A stretch of DNA of 63,077 nucleotides from an uncultured Christensenellaceae bacterium (lineage in GTDB: Bacteria > Bacillota > Clostridia > Christensenellales > DTU072), in NCBI GenBank assembly GCA_964432485.1, contig CAYSNP010000004.1, positions 24,319 through 87,395 of the forward strand, written 5' to 3'. Each line of letters starts with the position of its first letter. Within the stretch, counting starts at the first letter, position 1. The notes under the pieces are model-generated. The model was not told the origin of the DNA. It saw only the letters and a program-made list of their open reading frames with translations, and did not search any database. Position numbers and translations under genes: made by a program. Positions 9,327-30,662 of this stretch are shown here, piece by piece.

Positions 9327-9386
9327 AATTAGCCTCAACCCCGGATGTGTGCTATAGGGTAGGGCAAAGCTGACAAAGGAGAAAGA

Positions 9387-11804: not shown

Positions 11805-11805
11805 A

Positions 11806-13614
11806 ATGGTTTTATACAATTCCTTTGACCCTAACTATAAGCAACCTTTTGGAGCATTGGAGTGCGGAGGTAATCTTAGCATTACTTTTCCTGTGCACCA
11901 TAGCATAAGGGCGCAAGCTGTTTACATTGTTATACGTGGGGAGCAAGCGCTGCGTTTGCCGCTGCTTAAAGTAAAAAGCCAAAAGGATTATGATTTTTTC
12001 CATATTAGCTTTACTTTGGATAAAGAAGGGCTGTATTTTTATAGATTTGAAATTGATTTTAAGGAAGGTATCCGCTTTGTCGGCAGGGGCGAAAGGGGCA
12101 AGGCAAAGATAGGCGATTGGCTGCCCGAGTGGCAGCAAGCAGTATATAAACAAGGTTTTGCCACTCCTGATTTTATCAAAGGCGGTATTGTATACCATAT
12201 TTTTGTAGATAGGTTTGCACGCACAGAGGGTGCTGCTTTTTGCAAGCAAGGGGTTTTTAAGTGCTGGAACGAGGATGTTAGCACCAGCGACAGAGACGGA
12301 AAATATCGTGCTAATGACTTTTATGGCGGCAACCTTAAAGGCATTATAGGCAAACTAGACTACCTTGCCAGCCTTAATGTTAGCCTTATCTACCTTTCTC
12401 CTATCTTCAAAGCATATAGCAATCACCGCTATGATACCGGAGATTACTTTACAATTGATGAGCTGATAGGCTCTGAGCAAGACTTTAGCGAGCTGATAGC
12501 GCAAGCAAAGCAGTACGGAATTGGCATTATGTTAGACGGGGTGTTTAACCATACGGGCTCTGACAGCATTTACTTTAATAAATATGGCAATTATGACAGC
12601 ATAGGCGCTTGGCAAGGCAAACAAAGCCCGTATTACAATTGGTATACTTTTTTAGACGAGAAAAAGGGCTACCTTTCTTGGTGGGGAATAAAAAATGTGC
12701 CTTCCATAAGGCGGGATGCGCTAGGTTTTCAAGAAATGATTGCAGGCAGTGCGGGCGTGCTGGAAAAATGGACGAGTTTTGGAGTTGCAGGATGGCGATT
12801 GGATGTGGCTGACGAGCTAAGTTTGGATTTTATTAAAAAGATAAGAGACAAGCTAAAGAGCCTTAATCAGCAAACATTGTTACTTGGTGAAGTTTGGGAG
12901 GATGCCAGCAATAAAATAAGCTATGGAGAGCAAAGGCAGTATTTTAACGGTAACTTGCTGGACGGGGTAATGAATTATCCTTTTAGGGAATTAATCTTGC
13001 AGCTTATTAAAGATAAGGATATAGGTAAGTTTATAGAGGGCGTAGAAGCAATAATAGAGAATTATCCCAAACAGGCACTGGATACTTGCCTAGTAATGCT
13101 CTCTTCACACGATACCGTCAGAGCTATTAACGAGCTATCCGGCGCAAGTTGCACAGGGCTTTCAAAAAGAGAAAAAAAGCTGCGCAATCTTACTCTCACC
13201 GAGTACAGCAAAGGCAAAAAAAGACTAAAGCTGGCGAGCTTTTTGCAATATTTTCTGCCGGGAGTCCCCTCTATTTACTATGGGGATGAAGTTGGAATGC
13301 AGGGGTGGGATGACCCGATTAACAGGCGTCCTTTTACAGCAAACCCTGATAAGGAGCTGCTTGCTCATTACATAGAGCTAGGTAAGTTAAGGGCAAAATA
13401 CAAGCCTCACTTTACCTCGCTCATAAAGCTAACATCAAAAAAGGGCTGCTTATTCTTACAGCGGGGCGGGCTTACGGGTATAGTTAATTTAAGCGGGGCT
13501 ACTTTGTCCTTGCAAGAGTTGCTTAGCACAAATAATATAACAGATGAGCTGACAGGTAAAGTAATTGCATTGCTTGATGATATGCAATTTACAGTACTAA
13601 AGAATATTTTCTAA
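11806..13614 (+). CDS. GH13 neopullulanase/amylopullulanase-like enzyme, probable glycogen debranching
   Basis: YHIFVDRF, GGNLKGI, SNHRYDTGDY, LDGVFNH, GWRLDVAD, GEVWED, SSHDT, YYGDE. Confidence 0.88.
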   Translation: MVLYNSFDPNYKQPFGALECGGNLSITFPVHHSIRAQAVYIVIRGEQALRLPLLKVKSQKDYDFFHISFTLDKEGLYFYRFEIDFKEGIRFVGRGERGKAKIGDWLPEWQQAVYKQGFATPDFIKGGIVYHIFVDRFARTEGAAFCKQGVFKCWNEDVSTSDRDGKYRANDFYGGNLKGIIGKLDYLASLNVSLIYLSPIFKAYSNHRYDTGDYFTIDELIGSEQDFSELIAQAKQYGIGIMLDGVFNHTGSDSIYFNKYGNYDSIGAWQGKQSPYYNWYTFLDEKKGYLSWWGIKNVPSIRRDALGFQEMIAGSAGVLEKWTSFGVAGWRLDVADELSLDFIKKIRDKLKSLNQQTLLLGEVWEDASNKISYGEQRQYFNGNLLDGVMNYPFRELILQLIKDKDIGKFIEGVEAIIENYPKQALDTCLVMLSSHDTVRAINELSGASCTGLSKREKKLRNLTLTEYSKGKKRLKLASFLQYFLPGVPSIYYGDEVGMQGWDDPINRRPFTANPDKELLAHYIELGKLRAKYKPHFTSLIKLTSKKGCLFLQRGGLTGIVNLSGATLSLQELLSTNNITDELTGKVIALLDDMQFTVLKNIF

Positions 13615-13616
13615 TA

Positions 13617-13645
13617 TTGCTTTTTTGCTAGCTTTCTATTATAAT
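13617..13645 (+). promoter_or_regulatory. Internal sigma-A promoter for malQ
   Basis: TTGCTT, 17 nt, TATAAT; then SD AGAGGT and ATG 13664. Confidence 0.55.
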
Positions 13646-13663
13646 ATGATAAAGAGGTTAATT

Positions 13664-15178
13664 ATGGAAAATAGGACTAGCGGCATTTTGCTTAACATTG
13701 CCAGTATGCCCGGCAATTTTGCAATTGGCGATTTTTCTTGTAATGTGCTGGAAATAATAGACGATTTTGCTATTATGGGATTTCATTGGTTGCAGACTTT
13801 ACCTATTACCGCAATAGGAGAAGGCAATTCGCCTTACTCATCTAGTAGCGCTTATGCGCTAAATTATCTTTACCTTGACCCTTATAGTTTGCCCGAAAGA
13901 TTTGTTACAAAAGAAGAAATAGCTCCTTATGTTTATAGAGGAGAGCCTTATTTAGTCGATTACGATTACGCCCGAAAAGTTAAAAAAGAAATTCTTAAAA
14001 TAGCATACTCCCGCATTAACGAATTGGATAGAGAAGCAGTTAGCAGTTTTGTTAAAGCGCAGGAATATTGGATTAGCGACTATGCTCTTTATATGGCGCT
14101 AAAGGAAGCGCATAACGGTAAGGCTTGGTACGAGTGGGAAGAAAAGTATAAGTTTAGGTATCCAAATGCCTTGAAAGAGGCAGCCGAAACCTATAAAGAG
14201 CAAATTTACTTTTATTATTTTGAGCAGTTTATTTTACGCACCCAATGGGAGGTGCTTAAAAAACATGCAGATAGCAGAGGCTTTGGATTCTTTGGGGATA
14301 TGCCCATTTATGTGTCTTATGACAGTGTAGATGTATGGGCTAATCGCCAACTTTTTCAATTGGACGAGCAGCTAGTACAAAAAGCGCAAGCAGGAGTGCC
14401 GCCCGATTACTTTAGTGACAACGGGCAGTTGTGGGGCAATCCATTATACGATTACGAGGTTATGCGCAAAGATAACTACCAATGGCTTACCAATAGGATT
14501 GCTTACAACCTTTCATTATACCATTTGCTGCGTATAGACCATTTTAGAGGTTTTTATGAGTATTGGTCTGTGGATAAAGATGCCACCAGCGCGCAAGAGG
14601 GCTTATGGCAAAAAGGACCGGGGCTAGAGATTTGGGATGCGTTGCGCAAGATAGTCCCCAATCCTGCCATTGTGGCAGAGGACTTAGGTATCATCAATGA
14701 TAAGGTAAAAAAGTATCTGGAAAAAACAGGATTCTTTGGTATGAGGGTAATGCAATTTGGGTTTGACGGAAAAAGCGACAATCCGCATTTGCCTCATAAT
14801 TATGCAGAGAATTGCGTTGCCTATACAGCCACGCATGACAACAATACCACTTTGGGTTGGCTTTTTGAGCTAAGCAACGAAAGCAGAGAGTATGTGCTCA
14901 ATTATATTGGCTACGAAGGCAATCCTTTTATAGAAGGGCAAGGCTACTCCAGCGCAGTAAAATCATTTGTTCGTACAGTGCTTGCTTCCAAAGCAGACCT
15001 GGCAATTGTGCCTATTCAAGATATTTGTGGATTTGGAGCAGATACTAGACTTAATGTGCCCGGAGTAGCTGAGGGCAATTGGCGTTACCGCCTTACGCTT
15101 TCGGCATTGTCAGAAATAGATAGGGTGTTTTATTCTACCCTAAACCGCATTTATGGGAGGAACAATAAGACCTTTTAA
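13664..15178 (+). CDS. malQ: 4-alpha-glucanotransferase (amylomaltase, GH77)
   Basis: RTSGILL, GDMPIYVSYDS, GVPPDYFS, GQLWGNPLY, RIDHFRG, AEDLG, THDNNT. Confidence 0.95.
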   Translation: MENRTSGILLNIASMPGNFAIGDFSCNVLEIIDDFAIMGFHWLQTLPITAIGEGNSPYSSSSAYALNYLYLDPYSLPERFVTKEEIAPYVYRGEPYLVDYDYARKVKKEILKIAYSRINELDREAVSSFVKAQEYWISDYALYMALKEAHNGKAWYEWEEKYKFRYPNALKEAAETYKEQIYFYYFEQFILRTQWEVLKKHADSRGFGFFGDMPIYVSYDSVDVWANRQLFQLDEQLVQKAQAGVPPDYFSDNGQLWGNPLYDYEVMRKDNYQWLTNRIAYNLSLYHLLRIDHFRGFYEYWSVDKDATSAQEGLWQKGPGLEIWDALRKIVPNPAIVAEDLGIINDKVKKYLEKTGFFGMRVMQFGFDGKSDNPHLPHNYAENCVAYTATHDNNTTLGWLFELSNESREYVLNYIGYEGNPFIEGQGYSSAVKSFVRTVLASKADLAIVPIQDICGFGADTRLNVPGVAEGNWRYRLTLSALSEIDRVFYSTLNRIYGRNNKTF

Positions 15179-17516: not shown

Positions 17517-17554
17517 AAGAAGGCTGCCAAGCTGTCGTATTGGCAGTTTCTTTT
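17517..17554. terminator. Probable bidirectional intrinsic terminator between convergent genes
   Basis: aagaagg-CTGCCAA, 9-nt loop, TTGGCAG-tttctttt. Confidence 0.6.
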
Positions 17555-18872
17555 AGCTTATAAAGCCATTTATTTTTTCAATCCATTCTGCTACAGCGTT
17601 AGCTTTATAGCTTTGCGGAATATCAAGGATAGCTTGTTTTGCCGCTTTTGACTTGCCTACCACGCTTTTTATCTTTAGCAAGAGTAACGGTTTGCGCCAG
17701 CCTTTTTTAAGTTTTTCAAATATTGCTTTTTTATCCAGCACTATCTCTTGTCCATGCGCTCCCGCCCCCAGCTCTTTTGCGCCCAGGATACCATTGTTAA
17801 ATAAAAAGTTCAGTTCTTTTTCAGTTATTCCCAGCAAAAAGTTCTTTAATACGCAAATGCCAATCATTTTGCTTGCAACTGCAGTAAAATATTCAACTTG
17901 ATAGTCCCAAATATTGTCTATAGTCCATTCCTTTCCCTGTTTGTCAGCTTTAAGTAAGGTATCTGCAAGCATTTTTCCTGCCAAAATGGAGTTAGTAATA
18001 CCGGAGCCGTTAATAGGGATAGGCATAGATGCGGCATCTCCTGTAAGGGCAAAGCTGTCTCCCACTATAAGCGGCAAAGTGGATTTTAGAGGTATATCTC
18101 CCGCATATCCCCCTCGTTTTAGCTCATAGCCGATAGAGGGTTGCGCTTGGCGAAGTTTTTCAAGCACAGCATCCAGCCTTTGTTTGTCAAGAGGTTGCAC
18201 AGCTCCAACTATAATATCCGCCATCCCTTCATTGACCTTATACCACGCCAGCCCTTTTATACCTTCAAACATAAAATAAAAGTTAAATCTATCTGCATTG
18301 ACGATTTTAGCATTGGGTATTAAATTAAAATATGCTCTATATGCCCAAAAAATATCGCTTGGACCATAATTGCTTACAATATTATAGCTTTTCGGCAAGT
18401 GCTTAATAAGCGGCGAGTGTATTCCTGTAGCGTCTATAACAAAGTCAGCTAAAATTTCACCGTCTACGGTAACAATGCCCGCAACTTTATTGGCCGAATC
18501 CAAATAAGGGCGTAAAACTTCTTTTTCGAAATACAATATTGCTCCGCTCTTTAAGGCATTATCAATTAAGTATTTGTACAATACTTTTCTGTCAATGCTA
18601 TACTCTTTTTGGTCTGGACCTGCGTCAATAGATACCGAATTCTTTAAGTTTGGCGGAAAAAAGGTAGAATCAGGCCTGCCCGTATAGTCTTTTTTGCTAA
18701 CTTTTATGCCCGCATATTCAAAAGTGGAAGCGGCTATTGTATCATGCCAATCATACCCCAACTCTTCACGCTTTCGTTTTTCGTATACTTCCACGCTATA
18801 GCCTTGAGCTGCCAAATATGCCGCTGCGGTAAGCCCGCCATGCCCTGCGCCTGCAATTACTATTTTTTTCAT
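17553..18872 (-). CDS. FAD-dependent oxidoreductase (geranylgeranyl reductase/flavoprotein family)
   Basis: IVIAGAGHGGLTAA Rossmann motif with EK; VIDATG; GDAASMPIPINGSGI. Confidence 0.8.
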   Translation of the reverse strand: MKKIVIAGAGHGGLTAAAYLAAQGYSVEVYEKRKREELGYDWHDTIAASTFEYAGIKVSKKDYTGRPDSTFFPPNLKNSVSIDAGPDQKEYSIDRKVLYKYLIDNALKSGAILYFEKEVLRPYLDSANKVAGIVTVDGEILADFVIDATGIHSPLIKHLPKSYNIVSNYGPSDIFWAYRAYFNLIPNAKIVNADRFNFYFMFEGIKGLAWYKVNEGMADIIVGAVQPLDKQRLDAVLEKLRQAQPSIGYELKRGGYAGDIPLKSTLPLIVGDSFALTGDAASMPIPINGSGITNSILAGKMLADTLLKADKQGKEWTIDNIWDYQVEYFTAVASKMIGICVLKNFLLGITEKELNFLFNNGILGAKELGAGAHGQEIVLDKKAIFEKLKKGWRKPLLLLKIKSVVGKSKAAKQAILDIPQSYKANAVAEWIEKINGFIS

Positions 18873-18956: not shown

Positions 18957-19853
18957 TCAATACTTTCTTAAAAACTCCTGCACTTGAGTATTGCTAGGGA
19001 TAGCTGCTGCCGCTCCTTTCTTGGTAGTAGCAAGGGCTGCGGCTGCAGAAGCGTATTGTATAGCTTGCACTACCTCTTTGCCTTGCGCCAGCCCTGCCGC
19101 TAAATATCCGCAATAGGTGTCCCCTGCCGCTGTGGTATCTATTGCTTTTACCTTATAGCTTTTGACAGCGTGTCTATCTTTGCCCTCAATAAGCATAGAG
19201 CCTTGCTCCCCTAATGTGACTATAAGGCGAGCAATGCCTTGCTTTAGCAATGCCTTTACTGCTTTTTCAAAATCAGTACTGCCGCCAAGGGTAGCCAGTT
19301 CGTTTTCATTGGGGATAAGGATATCAGTATAGGAGAGCATATCTAAACATGCAAGATTAGCAGGAGCAGGATTAAGCAAGGTAAGCAGTCCTTTTTGTTT
19401 TGCTTGAGCCAGCCCGTATTTTACTAACTCTAAAGGCACTTCCAACTGCGTTAAAAAAATATCTCCTTCTACAGCTGTCTGCAATAGGGCGTCTATATCG
19501 CTTTTTGCCACTTTGGCATTTGCGCCTGCATTGATAATGATTCTATTGTCCGCATCTACTACTATTATTACAGCAGTGCCCGAAGAGCCGCTTGTTTGGC
19601 GTATATAGTTGCAAGCCACACCTGATTGAGCAAGTGCTGAAAGCATTTGTTCGGCAAAGGTATCAGAGCCTACACAGCCTGCCATATACACTTGTGCTCC
19701 CCCCTTAGCGCAAGCAATAGCCTGATTAGCACCTTTACCGCCGGGGTTTAGCATAAAATCATACCCTATTAGAGTTTCTCCCTTTTTCGGAAAGCGGTCT
19801 GCATTGATAACCACATCCATATTTAAGCTGCCTAACACAAAAATCTTTTTCAT
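18957..19853 (-). CDS. rbsK: Ribokinase
   Basis: GSLNMD, PKKGETL, PGGKGANQA, TQLEVP, PNENE, DTTAAGD. Confidence 0.88.
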   Translation of the reverse strand: MKKIFVLGSLNMDVVINADRFPKKGETLIGYDFMLNPGGKGANQAIACAKGGAQVYMAGCVGSDTFAEQMLSALAQSGVACNYIRQTSGSSGTAVIIVVDADNRIIINAGANAKVAKSDIDALLQTAVEGDIFLTQLEVPLELVKYGLAQAKQKGLLTLLNPAPANLACLDMLSYTDILIPNENELATLGGSTDFEKAVKALLKQGIARLIVTLGEQGSMLIEGKDRHAVKSYKVKAIDTTAAGDTYCGYLAAGLAQGKEVVQAIQYASAAAALATTKKGAAAAIPSNTQVQEFLRKY

Positions 19854-19862
19854 TTTAGCACC

Positions 19863-21488
19863 TTATGCTTTATGCAAAGATAAAACTAAACCTTGATACG
19901 CTGACAACTCTATATTGTTTAGGTCAATAGCTTGCTTATCTTTATTAATACTAAGCAGCACTTGCGCAGCTTTATAGTTGCCTGCATTCTCCAAAGAAAA
20001 AACGCATCCTTTTTTGCTCATATTAAGAGCTACAAATACAGTTTCTTGCTCAGTAGTCCTAAAATACGCTAACACATTTTTAGGAGCTTTTTCGTAAAAG
20101 GCAAACTCGCCAAGTCCTAAAGCATTATTTTTTTTGCGCATCCAAATAAGCTTGCGATAGGTATGCAGCAAGGAGTGCGGGTCTTGCTCCGCTTGCGCCA
20201 CATTTATATTTTTGTAGTCTTTATGTACAGGCAACCAAGGTTCTGCGCTAGAAAAGCCGGCATACTCTTCACTTGACCATTGTATAGGGGTGCGCGCGCG
20301 ATCTCTGCCTCTATGAAAAGGCCAATAGTGCTTGCCTACAGAGTCCATTAGTTCATTCCGCTTTATTTTAACATCCAGCATACCTATTTCCTCGCCCATA
20401 TAGATAAAAGGCGTACCTTTAAGAGTAAGGAGCAAAGCTGCCGCTATTTTAGCCCGTGCCAAAGTCCATTTGCCTTTGGCATACCTGCTGATATGGCGAG
20501 GTATATCATGATTGGAAAGAAAGTAGCTTGGCCAGCCTTTGCCTTGCGTAGCATCAAGCCACTGCTGAATATTTTGCTTAAAGCTAGCAGCCGAAAACTT
20601 AGAATGCATAAAGGCAAAATTAAATACCAAATGCATTCCGTCATTGTTATCCCCATAATACTTTACTGCTTCTTCCACATCTTTAATAAAGATTTCGCCT
20701 ACCAGCATTTTATCTTTATACTTATCTGTAAGTGCTCTCATCATTTTGCCCACTCCAACCGCCTCAGGTCTGTTGCGGTCATAAATATGCTTTTGCATAT
20801 CGTAAGGGCGTATGCCTAAGCAAAAAGGATTGTTGCGCAGCTCGCTGTCTTTATGAGAAAAGTTAAGTACATCCACCCTAAACCCGTCCACCCCTTTTTT
20901 TAGCCAAAACTCCATTGCCGCTAGCACAGCTTTTGCAACTTCGGGGTTTTTCCAATTGAGGTCAGGCTGTTCGGGCAAAGAATTATGATAATAATATTGG
21001 CGGGTCTTAGCGTCCCAATCCCAAGCCCGTCCGCCAAACATCCCCAGCCATTTGTTGGGGTATTTGCCTTGCTTGCCGTCCACCCATATATACCAATCCC
21101 TTTTAGGGCTGTCTTTGCTGGAGCGGGATTCGATAAACCAAGGGTGCAAGTGCGAAGTTACGCTTGGCACAATATCCATAAGGATGCGGATACCTCGCTT
21201 ATGCGCTTCCTCCAGCAATTTATCAAAGTCCGCCATAGTACCGTATTGAGGGTCAATGCCCTCATAATCCATAATGTCATATCCAAAATCATATTGCGGG
21301 CAAGGATATACGGGATTTAGCCAAATAGCGTCTATGCCCAAAGAGTTTTCAGTCCCGTCATTTAAGTAATCCAGCTTTTCAATAATGCCCTTAATATCAC
21401 CTACGCCATCATTGTTAGTATCGTTAAAGCTGCGAGGATACAATTGATATGCAACTGCGCTCTTCCACCATTCTGCCTTGCTATTCAT
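19863..21488 (-). CDS. GH13 alpha-glucosidase-like enzyme (oligo-1,6-glucosidase type) with altered -1 subsite
   Basis: WWKSAVAYQLYPRSF, DFGYDIMDY, QPDLNW, DGFRVD, GE, SNHD; region I reads DIVPSVTS instead of the usual DLVVNHTS; ATG 21488 after GGAGG. Confidence 0.9.
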   Translation of the reverse strand: MNSKAEWWKSAVAYQLYPRSFNDTNNDGVGDIKGIIEKLDYLNDGTENSLGIDAIWLNPVYPCPQYDFGYDIMDYEGIDPQYGTMADFDKLLEEAHKRGIRILMDIVPSVTSHLHPWFIESRSSKDSPKRDWYIWVDGKQGKYPNKWLGMFGGRAWDWDAKTRQYYYHNSLPEQPDLNWKNPEVAKAVLAAMEFWLKKGVDGFRVDVLNFSHKDSELRNNPFCLGIRPYDMQKHIYDRNRPEAVGVGKMMRALTDKYKDKMLVGEIFIKDVEEAVKYYGDNNDGMHLVFNFAFMHSKFSAASFKQNIQQWLDATQGKGWPSYFLSNHDIPRHISRYAKGKWTLARAKIAAALLLTLKGTPFIYMGEEIGMLDVKIKRNELMDSVGKHYWPFHRGRDRARTPIQWSSEEYAGFSSAEPWLPVHKDYKNINVAQAEQDPHSLLHTYRKLIWMRKKNNALGLGEFAFYEKAPKNVLAYFRTTEQETVFVALNMSKKGCVFSLENAGNYKAAQVLLSINKDKQAIDLNNIELSAYQGLVLSLHKA

Positions 21489-21506
21489 AATATTTACCTC
21501 CATATT

Positions 21507-22622
21507 TTATTGCCTGCTAATCATAGATTCTGCAATAATAAGCTCCATATCGCCCCGAGTGTTCTCCGGATTATAGTAGCAATCCAGCATCCTTTCATAA
21601 GGGAGATTGTTAATCCTATCATTCATAATATTCAGCACCTTGATATTAACTTCTACCGCCCTTTTTGCGCTCATCCGCTCCGGATTGATATCAATACCAA
21701 TATACTCTGCAAACCCTGCCGCCTTTAGGGCAAGAAGTCCGGCTTCCGCTTGCTCCCATTCTACTACTCCTACATTTAAGTCTTGGTCGTAATTGCCTAG
21801 CGGCTGACTGTTAAAATGAGGATGGCTCATCCTGCCTTCACGGCAAATTCGTGAAAAAACATAAGGAGTATCTTCATAGCCCATTCGTATATGTCCTATT
21901 TCCGGTTGCATACCTACCAGGCAGAAACCTTGCTCCAGCAGGCTGCGATTGATAGGATTAGCAAGCCTTGCTTCTACATCCCTTGCAAGTAGCAATCCAT
22001 CTGCGCAAGTACGGTAAATATTGTTTGGCACAGGCTCGCAAGGCTTGGTTTCAATGCGTACCATAACGCCGGGCACTTCGTCCATAGCGTCTGCAAGTGC
22101 GCCTTCAAAATTTTCCCACATTTGATAGTATGGGTGCCCATAAGAGTAAGTATAGCCATCTATACCCGGCCAAAGCCCGCAAGCATCCGCTTCTGCTACC
22201 TTAACAAATTTAAGTATTTCAATAAGTTTTTTTGTAGCTTGGTCACGGTATTTTGCTATTGGATTGGACAGTGTGCCAAACTCAAATTCTTTATTATAAA
22301 AGGTATGAGGACCTATGCCCGATATTCTGATGCCCGTTTCTTTTTCCAGTTGTTTGTAAAGGTGAAGGTTTTCTTCGTTTATTTCTACACCATAGTGGGC
22401 TTCTATCCCTTTAACTCCGATTGCCTGCATTTCTGCTACCAGTTCAATTCTTTCCGGTATGCTAATTTCTTTACCATAAGGCTCGTGGAATCTGCTTCCT
22501 CCTGGCGATAAGTACCAAATGCCCACAGTAGGTTTGATTTCCAGCTTAAAATTGCGCAAATGTGCTAACATTTGCTCCTTGTCTCTAAATTGTTTTTGAT
22601 ATTGTAGATTTTGTAGTTTCAT
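21507..22622 (-). CDS. Xylose isomerase-like TIM-barrel sugar isomerase
   Basis: VGIW, EAH, WPGIDGY, IETKPCEP, PEIGH, HPHFNSQ, YDQDL, GID align with XylA/L-RhI motifs. Confidence 0.82.
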   Translation of the reverse strand: MKLQNLQYQKQFRDKEQMLAHLRNFKLEIKPTVGIWYLSPGGSRFHEPYGKEISIPERIELVAEMQAIGVKGIEAHYGVEINEENLHLYKQLEKETGIRISGIGPHTFYNKEFEFGTLSNPIAKYRDQATKKLIEILKFVKVAEADACGLWPGIDGYTYSYGHPYYQMWENFEGALADAMDEVPGVMVRIETKPCEPVPNNIYRTCADGLLLARDVEARLANPINRSLLEQGFCLVGMQPEIGHIRMGYEDTPYVFSRICREGRMSHPHFNSQPLGNYDQDLNVGVVEWEQAEAGLLALKAAGFAEYIGIDINPERMSAKRAVEVNIKVLNIMNDRINNLPYERMLDCYYNPENTRGDMELIIAESMISRQ

Positions 22623-22639: not shown

Positions 22640-23560
22640 TTATTTGCTTAGCAGATATTTATTATTTAACTGCTCATAGCTTTCCAGCGTGCCCGATGCG
22701 CCTAACTTGCTCACACATTCCGCCCCTGCGGCATTGCCTAGTGCGGCGCAACCCCTTAGCGAAAGACCGTTGCAGCAAGCGGCTAAAAACCCAGCCACAA
22801 AAGCATCGCCTGCTCCCGTAGTATCTACTACCTTAGCAGGGTAAGCAGGTACTTTTAACTGATTTCCGTTTTCTGAGATCAGGCAACCATCCGCCCCCAT
22901 TTTTATAATAACCGTCCTTGCCCCGTGAATATGAAAAAAATTAGCGGCATCTTCTGCCCTTTTTGCCTTTGATAAGCTCAAAGCCTCTCTAATACTGGGC
23001 AGAAAATAATTCACATAAGCAAGAGCAGGGCGCAAAAGCTCAAAATCTTTGGCTTCTCCCGTAGTGTCTAATGCAGTTTTCAGGACAGCTTTTTGTGCTC
23101 TTTTAAGTAAATTAGCCATACCCATACCGTCTAAGGCAGGCAAATCAAAAGCGCTGCCGATATATAGGCAATCATACTGCTTTAGCGTTTCGTTACTGAT
23201 ATCTTTTTCCGCAAAGGTATGGCAAGCCCCTTTATAGGATAAAAAGCTCCGCTGCCCGTTTTTTTGAATCAGTACAGCAGAACTGGAGGTAGGCAGCTCC
23301 GCTTCAAGCACCAGATTAGTGTCCACTCCTGCGTTTGCCGCTTGCTCCATAATTGCTTGCCCTAGCATATCTTTGCCAATACGGGCAGCAAGTGCAGATT
23401 TTACGCCAAGGGCAGCCAAATTAACTGCCACATTAAAAGCGTCCCCTCCGCCTTTTAGCTCAATGGTGTCAACCTCACTGGTATCTACTTTTAAGCAAGT
23501 GTCTTCCACAGGCTTGATAAGTATATCACATACCGCAAGCCCTGCGCATAGAATCTTCAT
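22640..23560 (-). CDS. PfkB-family carbohydrate kinase
   Basis: GLAVCD, GGGDAFNVA, FLPSIRE, VDTTGAGDAF. Confidence 0.9.
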   Translation of the reverse strand: MKILCAGLAVCDILIKPVEDTCLKVDTSEVDTIELKGGGDAFNVAVNLAALGVKSALAARIGKDMLGQAIMEQAANAGVDTNLVLEAELPTSSSAVLIQKNGQRSFLSYKGACHTFAEKDISNETLKQYDCLYIGSAFDLPALDGMGMANLLKRAQKAVLKTALDTTGEAKDFELLRPALAYVNYFLPSIREALSLSKAKRAEDAANFFHIHGARTVIIKMGADGCLISENGNQLKVPAYPAKVVDTTGAGDAFVAGFLAACCNGLSLRGCAALGNAAGAECVSKLGASGTLESYEQLNNKYLLSK

Positions 23561-23573
23561 AAGCGCTCCCCCT

Positions 23574-24431
23574 TTATCCTGCCTTGCCTGCTAAGGCTGA
23601 AAACAATTTTATTTTTTCTTTTACCAATTCCTTTGCCGCTAGTTGTGCGCTTTTGAACAACTTAAAAACATTATAAGAAAACCCCGTCTCTTGTTGAGCT
23701 TTGGCCAGTTGCGCCCCGTATGCGGCAATAAACTCTGTGCAGATATTTACTTTAGCTATACCGCCTGCAATAGCTTCTGCAACCTTTTTGTCAGGCGTGC
23801 CCGAACCCCCATGCAGCACAAGGGGTATGCTCACTTGCAAAGCTATTTCTTTTAGCCTTTTTATATCAATCTTTGGGGTAGAGGTATAGAACCCATGCGC
23901 AGTACCTATAGCCACAGCCAGCGCATCTATATTAGTACGATTTACAAATTCTTTAGCTTGCAGAGGGTCGGTTAAATGCTCTTGCAAAGAGTCTATCTTA
24001 CCTTCGATGCCTATTAGCTGTCCCAGTTCTGCTTCTACAGTAGCATTGTACCCAGACGCAAGCCTAACTACTTTTTGGACAAGCGCAATATTTTCTTCCA
24101 TTGGCAACATAGACCCATCTATCATTACAGAGGTAAATCCAGCATCTAACACCCTTTCCACTTCTTCATAACTTTCTGCATGGTCAAGGTGCAGGGCTAT
24201 AGGTATAGAAAAAGATTGTGCAGTTATGGTAGCCAATTTATAGGCATTTGGATACCCATACATATAATCTCGCTCATAATGTCCTACTTGCAATATTACA
24301 GGCATGCTCAATTCCTGCGCTGCTTCTGCAACTGCAAAGGCAGAGTCAAGCGACCAAAATTCAAATGCGCCTACTGCATATTTTTGTGCTTTTGCCTGCT
24401 GCAGCATTGCTTTCATATTTACAAGTGCCAT
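23574..24431 (-). CDS. Class II ketose-(bis)phosphate aldolase
   Basis: HLDH, SVMIDGS, EAELG, LAVAIGTAHG, LVLHGGSG, KVNICTE. Confidence 0.92.
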   Translation of the reverse strand: MALVNMKAMLQQAKAQKYAVGAFEFWSLDSAFAVAEAAQELSMPVILQVGHYERDYMYGYPNAYKLATITAQSFSIPIALHLDHAESYEEVERVLDAGFTSVMIDGSMLPMEENIALVQKVVRLASGYNATVEAELGQLIGIEGKIDSLQEHLTDPLQAKEFVNRTNIDALAVAIGTAHGFYTSTPKIDIKRLKEIALQVSIPLVLHGGSGTPDKKVAEAIAGGIAKVNICTEFIAAYGAQLAKAQQETGFSYNVFKLFKSAQLAAKELVKEKIKLFSALAGKAG

Positions 24432-24443
24432 ATACCCTCCATA

Positions 24444-25652
24444 CTATAAAAGCCTTTTCCACAATAAGCTATCTTTGTTATCTTCATCAAATTGCTCATT
24501 GAAAATCAAGGTTGTCGCACCTTTTACAAATAGCTTTTCTTCATTGCATATTTCTATTTTTATATCATCTCTGGTAATAAAATCAGTGCGCTCGAATACC
24601 TTTTGCATTAGGCGATTTTCTAGAGCGGGGAAGCTAGGCAAGAAAGTAGAGTCCAGCACAATAAGTTCAGGGTCGTATGCCTTTATTATATTATCTATAC
24701 TTTGCGCAATATAATCTGTTGCTTGCTCCAATAATTGCATGCTAAACGCATTTTGATTTTTGGCAGACTCAATTATCCAAGCCATATCCAGCTCCGCCTT
24801 AGCAATTTTGTCTAAGCCCTTCTGCTTTTCTGCTTGTGCTTTGGCATAGCTGACTATCCCTAAATTAGAGGCATATAACTCAACACACCCAAAATTGCCG
24901 CAACTACATTGTTCGCCGTTAGGATTGATGCTAATATGCCCAATCTCACCTGCAAAATATCTGCTCCCTCTATATACTTTGCCATCTATTGTTATACCTA
25001 TTCCAATCCCTTCTACGGTAGAAAGATATACAATATTGCTATTAGTTCTATTTGATTTTAAGTATAAAACATTGGCATTGTTATCATTGTCCACAAGCGT
25101 GGGCAAGCTCATTTTTTTGCCCAGAAGCTCACCCAGAGGGATGTTCTTCCACCCTTTGATATGCGGCAATTCCAATATTACTCCTCTTGCAAAGTCAACA
25201 GGACCGGGCACAGATACTCCAATCCCGGCAATATCTTTTTTTTCAATACCGCTCTTTTCAATAATGCAGTGTATTTTGTCCGCTAAAACTTGTACTACTT
25301 CTTCTATTGAGTTATCGGCAAGTTTGAATTTTTCGCTACTGCAGCTAGCTTGCCCAAAAGCAAAATCAAATATGCCAATGCTAATCTGCTCAATACCGAT
25401 AGATACCCCTATTGTATACAAGCTCTTAGGATTTAAGCCATATATTGCCGCTTTTCTGCCTCCGGTAGAGATAGCAAGCCCATTATCTAATACAATTTCT
25501 TGAGCCAGCAGCTCATTGACAAAAGCATTTATAGTGCCTGCTGTAAGCACAGTCTTTTCCCTTAGCTCCTGCTTGGTAAGTTTACCGTGCCGCCTAAAGC
25601 AATCCAGTACCTCTAACATATTTTTGCGCTTAACTAAACTGGTAACTGCCAT
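24444..25652 (-). CDS. ROK-family transcriptional repressor (NagC/XylR-like)
   Basis: N-terminal wHTH plus STGGRK; GVSVPGPVD, VDNDNNA, GEIGH, CSCGNFGCVE. Confidence 0.92.
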   Translation of the reverse strand: MAVTSLVKRKNMLEVLDCFRRHGKLTKQELREKTVLTAGTINAFVNELLAQEIVLDNGLAISTGGRKAAIYGLNPKSLYTIGVSIGIEQISIGIFDFAFGQASCSSEKFKLADNSIEEVVQVLADKIHCIIEKSGIEKKDIAGIGVSVPGPVDFARGVILELPHIKGWKNIPLGELLGKKMSLPTLVDNDNNANVLYLKSNRTNSNIVYLSTVEGIGIGITIDGKVYRGSRYFAGEIGHISINPNGEQCSCGNFGCVELYASNLGIVSYAKAQAEKQKGLDKIAKAELDMAWIIESAKNQNAFSMQLLEQATDYIAQSIDNIIKAYDPELIVLDSTFLPSFPALENRLMQKVFERTDFITRDDIKIEICNEEKLFVKGATTLIFNEQFDEDNKDSLLWKRLL

Positions 25653-25837: not shown

Positions 25838-25866
25838 TTGACATAATACACTCAAGCTAATACAAT
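25838..25866 (+). promoter_or_regulatory. sigma-A promoter of the GPH transporter
   Basis: TTGACA, 17 nt, TACAAT. Confidence 0.75.
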
Positions 25867-25915: not shown

Positions 25916-27457
25916 ATGAATAGCATAAAACAAGAAAACACTAAGCAAAACTCTGTCCAAAAACTCTCCAATAGGAATCTTTTGATGTTTTCATTAGGGA
26001 CTTTTGGCAGAGATTTTGTCTATTGCTTATTTGCCGCAAATTTAATTAACTTTATATTATATACCAAGCAGTTGACAGAAGTGCAATTCGGCGCTGTTAC
26101 CGCTATTATTATCGGCGCAAGGCTGTTTGACGCTTTTAATGACCCTATTATGGGCGGCATTGTAGAAAATACCCGAACAAAATGGGGCAAGTTTAAGCCC
26201 TGGCAGCTTATTGGCTCAATCACTACGGGGATAGTAATTATAGCGTTATTTACCAATGATTATCAAGGCAGCTCTTTTGTATGGTTCTTGGGTATTATTT
26301 ATTTTTTGTTTAGTATTACCTTTACTATGAATGATATTTCTTATTGGGGGATGTTGCCTTCGCTTTCCAGCAATGAGCACGATAGAAGCAAGCTAACAGC
26401 AGTAGCTCAAATAGTAGCAGGCGCAGGCGGAGCTTTGGCAGGTGTAGCTATCCCTCTTTTTACTATTGGCAAATCTGCAATAGGCGGCAATGCCGTAACA
26501 GGATATAAGGTGATTTCAATTGTGTCCGTATTGCTAATGATTGCTTTTCAAATGTTTACTATATTGGGAGTAAAGGAAAAGCCTTTAGCACCTATCTTAG
26601 AGAAAAAGGATAAGCTCACCATAAAGCAAATGTTTACTACATTAGCAAAAAATGACCAGCTAATGTGGATAACAATAATAACCTTACTTTTTTGCATAGG
26701 CACAGGAGTAGTGGATGGAGGTCTTAACACTACTTATATTTACTTTGAATTTGGTTACGAAGGCTTGCTAATTACCCTTTTTGGCATCGTGTTTGCGGCG
26801 ATAAGCGGTGTCTTTACAGTAACTTACCCTTGGATAGAAAAGAAATTCTCCAGAACAAAACTGATATATACAACAGGCATAGCTTTAATTGTGGGCTATA
26901 TGCTAATGCTTATTTTTGGATTAATTCTGCCTTCTGGGGCACCAAATACTGCAGCTTGGTATGCCAAATTCATAGTTATGGCTTTAATTAATGGTATAGT
27001 AGGTTTTGGCAGAGGTTTTTATATGATAATGATTATTTCTATTGCCAATACCGTAGAATATAACGAGTACAAATTCGGTAAGCGTGAAGAAGGGCTGATT
27101 TTTTCCTTGCGTCCTTTTACTGCAAAGCTATCCAGCGCAATTTCTCAAGGATTGGTAACGGTAGTATATATTGTGGCAGGGGTGCTAACCTATACTAATA
27201 AAATTTCTGCATTGGAAAACGAAGCAGCTCAAAACATAATTTCTGAAGAAGTAAAGACGGGTAAAATTAAGGATATTATCAGCACTGTTTCTGCAGATGC
27301 AAAAAAAATGTTGTTAGTGTGTATGTGCTTGATTTGCATGTCAATTATGGCTGTGGCATTATTTATTTATAAAAAGAAGTTTACTTTAGACGAAGCTACA
27401 TACTCAAATATTCTCAGAGAGCTAGAGGCAAGGAGAGCTCAAGAAGAGGATAGCTAA
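25916..27457 (+). CDS. MFS glycoside-pentoside-hexuronide (GPH/MelB-like) transporter
   Basis: ARLFDAFNDPIMG, TRTKWGKFKPW, DISYWGM, NTVEYNEYKFGKREEG; about 12 hydrophobic segments. Confidence 0.9.
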   Translation: MNSIKQENTKQNSVQKLSNRNLLMFSLGTFGRDFVYCLFAANLINFILYTKQLTEVQFGAVTAIIIGARLFDAFNDPIMGGIVENTRTKWGKFKPWQLIGSITTGIVIIALFTNDYQGSSFVWFLGIIYFLFSITFTMNDISYWGMLPSLSSNEHDRSKLTAVAQIVAGAGGALAGVAIPLFTIGKSAIGGNAVTGYKVISIVSVLLMIAFQMFTILGVKEKPLAPILEKKDKLTIKQMFTTLAKNDQLMWITIITLLFCIGTGVVDGGLNTTYIYFEFGYEGLLITLFGIVFAAISGVFTVTYPWIEKKFSRTKLIYTTGIALIVGYMLMLIFGLILPSGAPNTAAWYAKFIVMALINGIVGFGRGFYMIMIISIANTVEYNEYKFGKREEGLIFSLRPFTAKLSSAISQGLVTVVYIVAGVLTYTNKISALENEAAQNIISEEVKTGKIKDIISTVSADAKKMLLVCMCLICMSIMAVALFIYKKKFTLDEATYSNILRELEARRAQEEDS

Positions 27458-28211: not shown

Positions 28212-30662
28212 ATGAAGATAGTAATTGTTGGCGGTGTTGCCGGCGGGGCTACTGTTGCGGCACGCCTTAGAAGATTAAGCGAAGAGTATGAAATAATAAT
28301 ATTAGAACGAGACTCCTATATATCTTATGCCAATTGCGGACTGCCATATTATATTGGCGATGTGATAACTGATAAGGAAAAACTGGTAGTTCAAACTCCG
28401 CAGGCTATGGGGATGCGTTTTAATTTGGATATACGCACAAAGCACGAAGTGCTTAGCATAGATAAAGCTAATAAAAAGCTGCTTGTAAAGAATCTTGAGA
28501 GTGGAGAGGATTACGAGCAAAGCTATGATAAGCTAATTCTTTCTTGCGGAGCAAAACCGCTTAAGCCGCCAATCAAAGGGCTTGACAGGGCGCAAAATGT
28601 CTTTACTTTGCGCAATATTCCTGATACATTTGCAATAAAAGAGTATATTCAAGCTAATAATGTTAAAAAAGCGGCAGTTATTGGCGGCGGATTTATTGGC
28701 GTAGAAATGGCAGAAAATCTGGCTAAGCTAGGCATAGAGGTCAGCTTAATAGAAAAATTGCCTCAGGTTTTAAGGCAGCTAGACTTCGAAATGGCGCAGT
28801 TTGTGCATGCCGAGCTTTGCGGTAACGGCATAGAATTGATTTTGTCAGACCAAGTTGAGGCTTTTGCCGATAAAGGGCGCACCATAGTGTTAGGAAGCGG
28901 CAGAAAAATAGCTTGCGATATGGCTGTGTTGGCCATTGGGATTGCTCCGGATAATATATTGGCAAAATCAGCAGCTCTCAAGCTGGGCGATTTTGGGCAT
29001 TTGCAAGTGTCGGAGACTTTTAATACTTTTGATAAGGAAAGCGGAGCTAAAGAGGCGGATATATATGCCATTGGCGATATGATAGAGGTAGTCAATCCAC
29101 TGGATAACAGCACTTATGCTGTAAGTCTTGCTTGGGGAGCAAATAGGCAAGGCAGGCTACTTGCCGACCATATTTTTGGCAGTAAAATCAAGGCTAGTAA
29201 GATTTTAGCTACTAATGTAATAAGCGTCTTTGAGCTTACCGCTGCCGGCACAGGAGCTAATGAGGAAACATTAAAAGCAAAAGGCATACCTTACAAGGCT
29301 ATCCATGCGCATCGCTCTAACCATGCCAGCTATTATCCGGGCTCTTTTAATATTTCGCTAAAACTTTTATACGAAGAAAAGACCGGCAGAATATTAGGTG
29401 CGCAAGCAGTAGGCAGGGCAGGTACAGAAAAGCGTATAGATACAATTGCTACGGCAATGCGTTTTGGCGGCACTATTTTTGAGCTAAGCGATTTGGAGTT
29501 TTGCTATGCTCCGCCTTATTCGTCTGCCAAAGACCCCGTCAATATACTAGGCTACATTGGCGAAAATATTGAAGCAGGCGCATACAAGCCTGTTTACCAT
29601 TACCAAATTGATGAAATAGCAAAAAATGGTGGCTATATTTTAGATGTCAGGACTCCGATAGAATATAATAATGGCAAAATTGAGGGCTCTATCAACTTAG
29701 AAGTTGACTCTTTGCGGCAAAATATTGATAAGATTACCTTGTCTAAAGACGCTCCTCTTTATGTAACTTGCCAAGTTGGGCTAAGGGCATATATTGCTAT
29801 AAAAATCTTAAAAGCGCATGGTTTTACCAATCTTTACAACCTTTCGGGCGGGTATTTAACTTATAAAATGTATCATTATCAGCCTATTGTAAATAAAAAG
29901 TTAAGACATATAGAAGTCAATGACTTACAGCAAAAGAAAGAAGTAAAAGAAATAGATGTAACAGGTTTGCAATGCCCGGGTCCGCTAATGGCAACGTATA
30001 AAGCGGTAGAAGCACTTGCCACAGGCGAAAAAGTTCGCATTTTAGCTACTGACACCGGTTTTGCCAATGATATTGAAAATTGGTGTCAAACGAACGGTCA
30101 TATATTAGAAGGGTTAAAGACTGAGGGTGGCAGAATTGTAGCAACTATTGCAAAAGGCGACGAAAGCAGGGGCATATTAGGCGCAATAGATCAAAGGAAT
30201 GCCACAATTGTAGTATTTAGCGGAGCGCTAGATAAGGTGCTGGCTGCTATGATTATAGCGCAAGGCGCGGCGGCTCAAGGCAAAAATGTTACCATGTTCT
30301 TTACCTTTTGGGGACTTAATGCGCTAAGAAGGTCAGAAAAAGTTAAAGTAAAAAAGAGCGCAATGGAAAAAATGTTTGGCACTATGATGCCAAAAGGTGC
30401 GGACAGACTGCCTTTATCTTCTATGAATATGGCAGGCATGGGAGCAAAAATGATAAAAGGCATTATGAAAAAGAAAAATGTGGACTCCTTGCCTCAAATG
30501 ATAAAGCATGCTCAAGCAGCCGGAGTGCGTATGATAGCTTGTACTATGAGCATGGACCTGATGGGTATCAAAAAAGAGGAGCTTATAGACAATATTGACT
30601 ATGCAGGCGTAGCAACTTATATCAGCAAAAATGAAAATGTAGGCACCACTTTATTTATCTAA
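28212..30662 (+). CDS. CoA-disulfide/persulfide reductase fused to rhodanese, TusA/SirA and DsrE-like domains
   Basis: GGVAGG, SYANCGLPY, GGGFIG, YAPPYS; LDVR...CQVGLR (rhodanese); DVTGLQCPGP (TusA); FFTFWGL and ACTMSMDLMG (DsrE2). Confidence 0.9.
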   Translation: MKIVIVGGVAGGATVAARLRRLSEEYEIIILERDSYISYANCGLPYYIGDVITDKEKLVVQTPQAMGMRFNLDIRTKHEVLSIDKANKKLLVKNLESGEDYEQSYDKLILSCGAKPLKPPIKGLDRAQNVFTLRNIPDTFAIKEYIQANNVKKAAVIGGGFIGVEMAENLAKLGIEVSLIEKLPQVLRQLDFEMAQFVHAELCGNGIELILSDQVEAFADKGRTIVLGSGRKIACDMAVLAIGIAPDNILAKSAALKLGDFGHLQVSETFNTFDKESGAKEADIYAIGDMIEVVNPLDNSTYAVSLAWGANRQGRLLADHIFGSKIKASKILATNVISVFELTAAGTGANEETLKAKGIPYKAIHAHRSNHASYYPGSFNISLKLLYEEKTGRILGAQAVGRAGTEKRIDTIATAMRFGGTIFELSDLEFCYAPPYSSAKDPVNILGYIGENIEAGAYKPVYHYQIDEIAKNGGYILDVRTPIEYNNGKIEGSINLEVDSLRQNIDKITLSKDAPLYVTCQVGLRAYIAIKILKAHGFTNLYNLSGGYLTYKMYHYQPIVNKKLRHIEVNDLQQKKEVKEIDVTGLQCPGPLMATYKAVEALATGEKVRILATDTGFANDIENWCQTNGHILEGLKTEGGRIVATIAKGDESRGILGAIDQRNATIVVFSGALDKVLAAMIIAQGAAAQGKNVTMFFTFWGLNALRRSEKVKVKKSAMEKMFGTMMPKGADRLPLSSMNMAGMGAKMIKGIMKKKNVDSLPQMIKHAQAAGVRMIACTMSMDLMGIKKEELIDNIDYAGVATYISKNENVGTTLFI

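Follow-up and report, generated by a model that had tools for sequence, protein, structure and literature searches.

We analysed a stretch of 63,077 nucleotides (the window) from an uncultured Christensenellaceae bacterium (GenBank assembly GCA_964432485.1, contig CAYSNP010000004.1), with a focus on a glycoside hydrolase family 13 (GH13) gene at 19863..21488 on the minus strand. The encoded protein keeps the catalytic residues of the family and has lost the histidine of conserved region I. It is part of a small clade, here called PSV, whose members share this loss, and its gene stands in an operon with predicted isomerase, kinase and aldolase genes. We propose, with a probability of roughly 45%, that the PSV proteins are alpha-glycosidases for a gluco-configured glycone without a normal 6-hydroxyl group, and that they would be the entry to an isomerase/1-kinase/aldolase route. 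GH13 is the largest and best studied alpha-glycosidase family, and its region I His is treated as a fixed feature. A clade under selection that has dispensed with this His, with its catalytic machinery otherwise kept, would widen the family's substrate range beyond glucose.

The longest open reading frame (ORF) of the gene, at 19863..21503 on the minus strand, encodes 546 aa, the Met at 21488 being Met6. Since a GGAGG is found 7 nt 5′ of the ATG at 21488, just past the stop codon of the preceding gene, this start is likelier than that at 21503, and gives a protein of 541 aa. Residues are numbered here on the 546-aa ORF (minus 5 for the 541-aa protein). The protein matched PF00128 over residues 20–462 (E 4.9e-136), corresponding to the (beta/alpha)8 catalytic domain. 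The catalytic Asp/Glu/Asp, the region II Arg and the region IV His were all present (Asp211, Glu270, Asp333, Arg209 and His332). By its fold and catalytic residues, the protein belongs to family 13. Val115 stands in the place of the region I His, a near-invariant feature of the family and not a strict requirement.

By sequence, the two nearest solved structures were those of XgtA, a Xanthomonas glucosyltransferase (6aav, E 4e-131), and of HaG, an alpha-glucosidase from Halomonas (3wy1, E 1.5e-126); oligo-1,6-glucosidases and sucrose isomerases came next. An AlphaFold2 model, computed from an alignment of 58 sequences, had a pLDDT of 94.1 and a pTM of 0.92. Its top Foldseek match was again HaG (3wy4, TM 0.91), with HaG and XgtA structures ranging between TM 0.90 and 0.92. 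HaG (GH13_23; 3WY1-3WY4) and XgtA (6AAV) have the same three-domain architecture, nucleophile, acid/base and Asp as the window protein. In NCBIfam, the protein was below every curated equivalog cut-off (best 547.8 bits against 900; TreC 452.7 against 799). The best model there, NF051899, is named "beta-galactosidase BglA", which is odd for a GH13-type model. These matches are best explained by a retaining exo-alpha-glycosidase of the HaG/oligo-1,6-glucosidase group, predicted to be catalytically competent.

The catalytic motifs are intact. Region II reads GVDGFRVDVLNF and carries the nucleophile Asp211, the acid/base motif is VGEIF with Glu270 (codon 20694..20696, minus strand, as for all codons below), and region IV is FLSNHD with His332 and Asp333 (20505..20510). 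Glu270, His332 and Asp333 were invariant in all groups compared. Two other segments have changed. Region I reads MDIVPSVTSHLHPWF, where the Ser114-Val115 codons (AGC GTA, 21159..21164; Val115 GTA at 21159-21161) replace the usual Asn/Ser-His. The segment equivalent to YYLHLF...QPDLNW reads YYYHNSLPEQPDLNW, where the Asn174-Ser175 codons (AAT TCT, 20979..20984; Ser175 TCT at 20979-20981) bring in a Ser for the Phe that stacks on the −1 sugar. A first-pass annotation of the window had recorded these motifs, with the nucleophile, acid/base and NHD intact, and its readings and coordinates were correct. It had further described region I as a change from NH to SV. The His to Val replacement is a real departure, while the Asn to Ser one is not, as HaG and XgtA already have SH at these positions.

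In the alignment with HaG, Val115 corresponds to His105 and Ser175 to Phe166. The HaG residues Asp62, Tyr65, Arg200, Asp202, Glu271, His332, Asp333 and Arg400 correspond to Asp72, Tyr75, Arg209, Asp211, Glu270, His332, Asp333 and Arg400 of the window protein, and these eight are invariant in 28/28 clade members. Among the named −1 residues, only the His105 and Phe166 positions differ. The window protein thus departs from the glucose-binding −1 set of the GH13_23/31 alpha-glucosidases and oligo-1,6-glucosidases (Asp, Tyr, His, Phe, Arg, His, Asp, Arg), of which it keeps 6/8, with His to Val and Phe to Ser. In HaG, His105 is listed among the residues that bind substrate (bioRxiv 10.1101/2023.03.31.535182). 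The −1 glucosyl ring in the sucrose isomerase NX-5 is hydrogen-bonded by His145 and stacks on Phe205 and Tyr105 (PMC3777934). Val115 is equivalent to NX-5 His145 and Ser175 to NX-5 Phe205. Both changed residues therefore touch the −1 sugar, in agreement with the earlier proposal that they line this subsite.

Two further changes are specific to the clade. Leu213, two residues after the nucleophile (codons of Asp211, Val212 and Leu213 at 20865..20873), replaces Ile/Val, and Met369 (20397..20399) replaces Tyr/Gln two residues before GEE. Compared with HaG, which acts on maltose and sucrose, the window protein has Val for His105, Ser for Phe166, Leu for Val204, Met for Gln369 and Val for Thr203. 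The oligo-1,6-glucosidase, MalL, dextran glucosidase and sucrose isomerases of GH13_31 (1UOK, 4M56, 2ZIC, 4HPH) have the same fold (TM 0.86–0.90) and equivalent −1 residues. Like the window protein, they have a Val directly after the nucleophile, which in this part of GH13 goes with alpha-1,6 specificity. Unlike it, they keep the region I His, with its hydrogen bond to the glucosyl ring, and the stacking Phe. The residues that hold O2, O3 and O4 of the −1 sugar are unaltered in the window protein, and at its clade-specific pocket positions there are only hydrophobic or small residues (Val, Leu, Met, Ser), with no Arg or Lys. The pattern is best explained if the part of the −1 subsite around C6 has been rebuilt, by His to Val/Ile/Leu, Phe to Ser, Ile to Leu after the nucleophile and Tyr/Gln to Met before GEE.

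The changes are not private to this genome. From the 120 closest matches in a public protein collection, 27 metagenome homologues, 56–88% identical to the window protein, pair a non-His residue at position 115 with Ser175, and together with the window protein they form the PSV clade (28 sequences). Site 115 is Val in 25, Leu in 2 and Ile in 1 of them, and His in 79/79 canonical relatives among the same 120. Ser175 was found in all 28, against Phe/Trp in 79/79 canonical relatives. Leu213 was likewise found in 28/28, the His-retaining sister group having Ile in 13/14. Met369 was also constant (28/28), with Tyr in 73/79 canonical relatives and Gln/Tyr in the sister group. Twelve positions discriminated PSV (n = 28) from the canonical relatives (n = 79). 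Four of these (Ser114, Val115, Leu213 and Met369) also split PSV from the His-retaining sister group (n = 14), which already has Ser175. The signatures at positions 114, 115, 175, 213 and 369 were S-V-S-L-M (24 sequences), T-L-S-L-M (2) and S-I-S-L-M (1), and in the sister group G-H-S-I-Q and N-H-S-I-Y. One member of the T-L subgroup, P0030, reads VPAHTS and thus has His together with Leu213 and Met369, perhaps a reversion, an intermediate or a sequencing error.

In a neighbour-joining tree with the signature columns masked, the His-less and His-retaining HNS sequences formed an exclusive clade of 41. Two metagenome copies of the window gene gave a dN/dS of 0.057 (L028, 98% identical) and 0.048 (L029, 89% identical). 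The PSV proteins are a small conserved clade of uncultured anaerobes under purifying selection. Decay or a private mutation, which the first-pass annotation had named as grounds for giving up a new specificity, was rejected by the 27 homologues sharing the changes, the dN/dS of ~0.05 and the AlphaFold model. As to another such ground, neither the PDB nor the literature searched yielded a characterised ordinary alpha-glucosidase with the same residues.

To place the clade, we scanned one genome per species (185,579 genomes) with the DNA pattern for P-x-[V/I/L/M/F]-T-x-H-L-H-P-W-F, for which fewer than one chance match was estimated. It gave 14 loci, all in metagenome-assembled genomes (MAGs) from anaerobic habitats. 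The MAGs belonged to Anaerolineaceae, Chloroflexota, Spirochaetes, Bacillota, Syntrophomonadaceae, Christensenellaceae, Bacteriovoracaceae and one deltaproteobacterium. Named PSV proteins in the collection are annotated as Anaerolineae or Firmicutes/Bacillota. The nearest genome records were two Syntrophomonadaceae MAGs (L021 and L022; 83% and 72% over partial genes), and the JGI metagenome contig of L028 (Ga0265293_10021966) carries the same five genes, with 96–99% protein identity.

The near-invariance of the region I His, claimed from the outset, was borne out by the 79/79 canonical relatives and by an exhaustive search of representatives at 50% identity, in which ~141/148 aligned relatives keep it. 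The other ~7/148 (~5%) are scattered lineages with another residue at this site and an intact catalytic triad. The group has therefore lost this His on more than one occasion, though rarely. Unrelated lineages without it, having Tyr, Leu, Gly, Asn or Arg instead and keeping Asp/Glu/Asp, were P0243, P0261, P0264, P0297, P0350 and P0368.

Six minus-strand genes are tightly packed here, 9–18 nt apart, and the GH13 gene is fifth among them. The operon starts with a ROK-family regulator with an N-terminal winged helix (24444..25652, 402 aa; PF00480 and HTH_24), which is NagC/Mlc-like and below cut-offs. There follow a class II, metal-dependent ketose-phosphate aldolase (23574..24431, 285 aa; PF01116), a YdjH-like PfkB-family sugar kinase, predicted to be a ketose 1-kinase (22640..23560, 306 aa; PF00294), and a xylose isomerase (XI)-like TIM barrel protein, predicted to be an aldose-ketose isomerase (21507..22622, 371 aa; PF01261). 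The GH13 gene comes next, and a ribokinase (18957..19853, 298 aa) is last. The ribokinase passes TIGR02152 by a narrow margin (311.5 bits, cut-off 299.65), so that a closely related furanose kinase is possible. Divergent from the operon, on the plus strand, is a glycoside:cation symporter of the GPH family (25916..27457, 513 aa; MFS_2, PF13347; TIGR00792 257.9 against 231.35). In the 263-nt gap between the ROK gene and the symporter, promoter-like sites point both ways, one facing the operon (25724-25696, minus strand) and one facing the symporter (25838-25866, plus-facing).

This neighbourhood recurs. An XI-like TIM barrel gene was found at most three genes from the PSV GH13 gene in 11/12 independent loci with enough flank (window/L028 counted as one, L029, L001, L018, L004, L006, L108, L014, L017, L019 and L109). 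The exception, L023, had only the symporter and the ribokinase in the 8 kb seen. Three cluster types were recognized. Type A has the ROK regulator, sometimes the aldolase, the YdjH-like kinase, the 371-aa isomerase, GH13, the ribokinase and MFS_2, and comprises the window, L028, L029, L001 (a biogas Firmicutes genome) and L018 (a Christensenellaceae MAG). Its isomerase is 80–98% identical between loci and thus better conserved than the GH13 protein. Type B, from Anaerolineaceae (L004, L006 and L108), has the 371-aa isomerase, a PfkB kinase, a PRK09270-type P-loop kinase, GH13 and MFS_2. Type C (L014, L017, L019 and L109, with L022 partial) has an aldo-keto reductase with a ferredoxin-like domain, GH13, a 397-aa XI-like protein, a PfkB kinase and a ribokinase. 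The reductase gene precedes GH13 in L017, L019, L022 and L109, which would suit a pathway in which an aldehyde has to be reduced. In L017, L022 and L109, Type C is also accompanied by an HpaB-like gene or fragment.

The 397-aa XI-like protein (e.g., L019 3039-4232 and L109 7886-8926) is only 24–29% identical to the 371-aa one. The presence of two different XI-like lineages beside PSV GH13 genes argues that the isomerase step itself is required. Copies of the 371-aa isomerase adjoining PSV-type GH13 genes were 63–81% identical. MFS_2 genes flank PSV GH13 in L001, L004, L006, L008, L014, L018 and L023, and ribokinases above the TIGR02152 cut-off adjoin it in L001 (357 bits), L019 (308.9) and L023 (316.5). 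Two kinases accompany GH13 in every cluster type, which fits a two-sugar substrate. No PSV cluster had a xylulokinase or other FGGY kinase, PfkB or P-loop kinases being found instead. The isomerase/kinase context was not found at the loci of the His-retaining sister groups, and the locus of the T-L variant had ROK and MFS_2 only.

The 371-aa TIM barrel protein scored 36.7 bits against the XylA cut-off of 447, with weak matches to xylA and RhaI. Its family had 2854 matches, with a mean column identity of 71%, and occurs also in Dictyoglomus and Bathyarchaeia. An alignment with the Thermus xylose isomerase and 3ktc, at ~20% identity, pointed to retention of the catalytic His and Lys and of 7/8 metal ligands. 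At this identity level, His76, Glu191, Lys193, Glu241, His244, Asp279, Asp281 and Asp311 have as XI counterparts His54, Glu181, Lys183, Glu217, His220, Asp255, Asp257 and Asp287, and His269 replaces the XI Asp245. Among 76 metagenome loci of the family, a xylulokinase (TIGR01312, 579 bits against 380) was directly downstream in 10, and at most four genes away in 14. This linkage suggests that the family is, at least in part, a working aldose-ketose isomerase, predicted to act on pentoses or hexoses. It may be a third class of xylose isomerase. Thirteen positions separate the GH13-linked isomerases from those linked to XylB, and an exact-sequence look-up of the window's isomerase gave no match. 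The closest isomerase relatives without a GH13 gene (L034 1316-7779, L030 2497-3738, L031 1422-2708 and L027 5017-6159) sit in an isomerase-kinase-aldolase trio among URO-D/MtaA-like genes. Three URO-D/MtaA-like paralogues were found in L034; they could mean a methylated sugar or an unrelated function.

The PfkB kinase (22640..23560) had E. coli YdjH as its best PDB match (3h49, E 6.4e-45; next 5e-22) and was below every NCBIfam equivalog cut-off. YdjH is a ketose 1-kinase that works with the class II aldolase YdjI to give dihydroxyacetone phosphate (DHAP) and an aldehyde, the pair preferring long acidic sugars. YdjI was among the matches of the window aldolase. The latter passes TIGR00167 (272 against 215.6), and reached no equivalog cut-off for fructose bisphosphate (FBP) or tagatose bisphosphate (TBP) aldolases. 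In the FBP aldolase (FBA) of H. pylori, the 6-phosphate is bound by Ser49, Arg259 and Arg280 (PMC10665668). The corresponding residues of the window aldolase are Gly, Ile and Phe, so that it lacks the ligands of class II FBP/TBP enzymes. Four aldolase orthologues adjoining the isomerase (L029, L030, L034 and L018) are likewise devoid of them, the replacements in this subgroup being Gly/Pro, Ile/Leu and Phe/Leu/Asp/Pro at the three sites. S. aureus FBA and E. coli AgaY retain an Arg at the Arg280 equivalent. The missing 6-phosphate ligands indicate that the intermediate would be a ketose 1-phosphate with a neutral tail, and not a 1,6-bisphosphate. Such chemistry would be forced on a sugar without a free terminal hydroxyl, or chosen for a pentulose. 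A fructose or tagatose bisphosphate route, with the two PfkB kinases and the aldolase acting on an ordinary hexose, was ruled out because the aldolase lacks all the 6-phosphate ligands.

Taken together, three independent observations, a pocket without the O6 contact and now hydrophobic near C6, an isomerase recruited twice and an aldolase without a 6-phosphate site, point to a glycone that is gluco-configured at C2–C4 and differs at C6. In the route that we envisage, the GPH symporter would import a small alpha-glycoside, which the GH13 enzyme would cleave. The freed glycone, D-xylose or 6-deoxy-D-glucose, would be isomerised by the XI-like enzyme, and the ketose phosphorylated at C1 by the YdjH-like kinase. 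The class II aldolase would then release DHAP and a short aldehyde (glycolaldehyde or lactaldehyde). The ribokinase would take the second product of the glycosidase, probably ribose or a ribose-like furanose. We infer each substrate and reaction of this scheme from the observed residue changes, their conservation, the selection on the gene, its neighbourhood and the lost ligands. The earlier suggestion of a new specificity centred on C6 is upheld in so far as the clade is conserved, its pocket changes co-vary and its own gene context points away from plain glucose.

Within this proposal we rate the two glycones about equally, and each with low confidence. An alpha-xylosidase and an alpha-quinovosidase are both plausible and compatible with the sequence, which does not separate them. 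D-xylose is favoured because the isomerase family is linked to xylulokinase elsewhere, because Val212 goes with alpha-1,6 specificity and because alpha-xylosides are abundant in plant biomass. A further point in its favour is that the ROK regulator and the GPH symporter have counterparts in the Lactobacillus pentosus isoprimeverose operon and in E. coli yicJI. These GH31 alpha-xylosidase systems (E. coli yicJ-yicI; L. pentosus xylP-xylQ-xylR-xylA-xylB) consist of a GPH transporter, an alpha-glycosidase, a ROK-type regulator, a xylose isomerase and a kinase. The window operon is like them in overall logic. They differ from it in having a GH31 glycosidase, a canonical class II XylA and an FGGY XylB, where the window operon has a distant XI-like isomerase and PfkB-type kinases, plus the aldolase and the ribokinase. 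By the standard of known alpha-xylosidase loci the evidence is mixed, as an XI-like gene adjoins GH13 in 11/12 loci, yet scores far below the XylA cut-off. 6-Deoxy-D-glucose is favoured because no PSV cluster has a xylulokinase, because the 1-kinase and aldolase route would be obligatory for a 6-deoxy sugar, and because the Type C aldo-keto reductase would dispose of lactaldehyde.

Several observations weigh against a glycone altered at C6, or against one of these two sugars. The substitutions enlarge the pocket, while an enzyme selective for xylose would be expected to fill the space where the hydroxymethyl group would be. The geometry would be suited at least as well to a bulkier neutral group at C6, such as 6-O-methyl. 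A xylose glycone would call for the xylulokinase that the PSV clusters lack, and the Type B and L001 clusters are without the aldolase, which counts against 6-deoxyglucose. The co-variation of the pocket residues is imperfect, P0030 having A-H-S-L-M, and the internal order of the 41-sequence clade is unresolved, so that a single origin of the His-less state is not settled by the tree. We know of no abundant natural alpha-D-quinovoside, nor of a natural glycoside in which a sugar of this kind is joined to ribose, and a second product resembling ribose is what the recurrent ribokinase implies. Finally, gene context can mislead: in the only published test of a GH13 protein from a sulfoquinovose cluster, the Marinovum enzyme, which keeps the His, was a plain alpha-glucosidase. 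In the literature searched there was no GH13 sulfoquinovosidase, quinovosidase or alpha-xylosidase and no 6-deoxyfructose catabolism, this negative Marinovum case being the only relevant one.

The PSV enzymes could also be ordinary alpha-glucosidases, with glucose at −1. Asn174, Ser175, Ser114 or a water would replace the His contact, the aglycone would be specialised (e.g., glucosyl-ribose or a sucrose isomer), and the XI-like enzyme would be a glucose isomerase feeding fructose to the PfkB kinases. The O2/O3/O4 ligands and the catalytic residues are indeed intact, the nearest structures are alpha-glucosidases, and xylose isomerases accept glucose. The ~7/148 representative clusters that lost the His and kept the triad suggest that it is perhaps more dispensable than assumed, and the Marinovum enzyme shows that a GH13 protein in a suggestive cluster can prove to be a plain alpha-glucosidase. 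We nevertheless consider this improbable. Glucose enters glycolysis without an isomerase, yet an XI-like gene was recruited from two lineages. The linked aldolase appears unable to bind a 6-phosphate, so that a fructose 1,6-bisphosphate route would not be encoded. The His is present in all canonical relatives compared, and its replacements here are hydrophobic. A glucose glycone thus explains neither the isomerase nor the aldolase.

A glucose with a larger neutral group at C6 (6-O-methyl, 6-O-acyl or similar), held in an enlarged hydrophobic pocket, would account for several of the same observations. The pocket grows, since each of the changes His to Val, Phe to Ser and Tyr to Met takes away volume, and an isomerase, a 1-kinase and an aldolase are what any O6-blocked hexose would need. 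The closest isomerase-kinase-aldolase trios without GH13 lie among methyltransferase-type genes of the URO-D/MtaA kind, but such genes are absent from the GH13 clusters. This option seems doubtful to us.

The first-pass annotation had also offered a sulfoquinovosidase-like activity, which we regard as very unlikely. The GH13 enzyme would then open a variant of the sulfo-Embden-Meyerhof-Parnas route (sulfo-EMP), from sulfoquinovose through sulfofructose and sulfofructose-1-phosphate to DHAP and sulfolactaldehyde. Sulfoquinovose is very abundant, and the window operon shares with sulfo-EMP (YihQ/YihS/YihV/YihT; SqvD/SqiK/SqiA) the order of glycosidase, aldose-ketose isomerase, ketose 1-kinase and aldolase yielding DHAP and a C3 aldehyde, as well as a GPH transporter. 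It shares a PfkB kinase with sulfo-EMP1 and a class II PF01116 aldolase with sulfo-EMP2. Arg280 is likewise missing from class II sulfofructose-phosphate aldolases, and 8q57/8q58 were among the PDB matches of the window aldolase. However, the glycosidase is GH13 and not GH31/GH188, the isomerase is PF01261 and not PF07221/PF02952, and the isomerase and kinase families match neither sulfo-EMP1 nor sulfo-EMP2. Identity with sulfo-EMP2 was ruled out, since its isomerase is PF02952 and its kinase PF00365. GH31 YihQ binds the C6 sulfonate via Arg/Trp/Tyr. The PSV pocket has gained no cationic or extra hydrogen-bonding residue (the sites being Ser, Val, Ser, Leu and Met), and Val, Leu and Met would be poor partners for a sulfonate. 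Two of the residues replacing the phosphate ligands of the aldolase are Ile and Phe, no sulfonate-handling residue or gene was seen in the operon, and the ribokinase would be left unexplained. Neither a sulfolactaldehyde reductase/dehydrogenase nor a sulfonate exporter was found in any cluster type (window operon, L001, L004, L006, L018, L108 and L109). A decaying or non-catalytic relic, or a binding protein like rBAT/4F2hc, would fit the loss of the transition-state-stabilising His, but is scarcely credible given the intact ORF and Asp/Glu/Asp triad, the low dN/dS, the conservation of the clade between phyla, the tight operon with its 9–18-nt gaps and the confident structural model.

The preferred route, through a glycone altered at C6, has partial counterparts in other pathways. 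Those for L-fucose and L-rhamnose follow the same scheme of isomerase, 1-kinase and aldolase, but with FGGY kinases and FucA-type aldolases, and the isomerase and glycosidase of the window operon come from other protein families than those of such schemes. Neither these nor YdjH/YdjI are known to be linked to a GH13 glycosidase, unlike the window operon, and to our knowledge HaG has no linked isomerase-kinase-aldolase genes. More tentatively, the PSV clade may comprise the first GH13 enzymes with a non-glucose glycone, serving a route with a third XI-like class, a ketose 1-kinase and a class II aldolase for ketose 1-phosphates that has no 6-phosphate site. Their substrate would then be a natural glycoside of a 6-deoxy or C6-less gluco-sugar and ribose. 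The dedicated isomerase-kinase-aldolase genes point to an undescribed carbon source in anaerobic digester and sediment communities. They also bring to light two further uncharacterised families, the widespread 371-aa XI-like protein and the class II aldolase without a 6-phosphate site.

Downstream of the operon, an FAD-dependent oxidoreductase gene (17553-18872) was set aside as a pathway member. It is a member of the geranylgeranyl reductase family, with a promoter-like site of its own and an 84-nt gap to the operon, and recurs only in the near-identical L028. The tRNA and Rfam scans of the window found nothing. Elsewhere in the window there was a glycogen-type cluster (7905-15178, plus strand), with a GlgA-like starch synthase, a glycogen phosphorylase, a second GH13 protein (602 aa) and a GH77 4-alpha-glucanotransferase. 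Beyond the symporter, at 28212-30662 on the plus strand, an 816-aa fusion protein combined pyridine nucleotide-disulphide oxidoreductase, rhodanese, TusA and DsrE-like domains.

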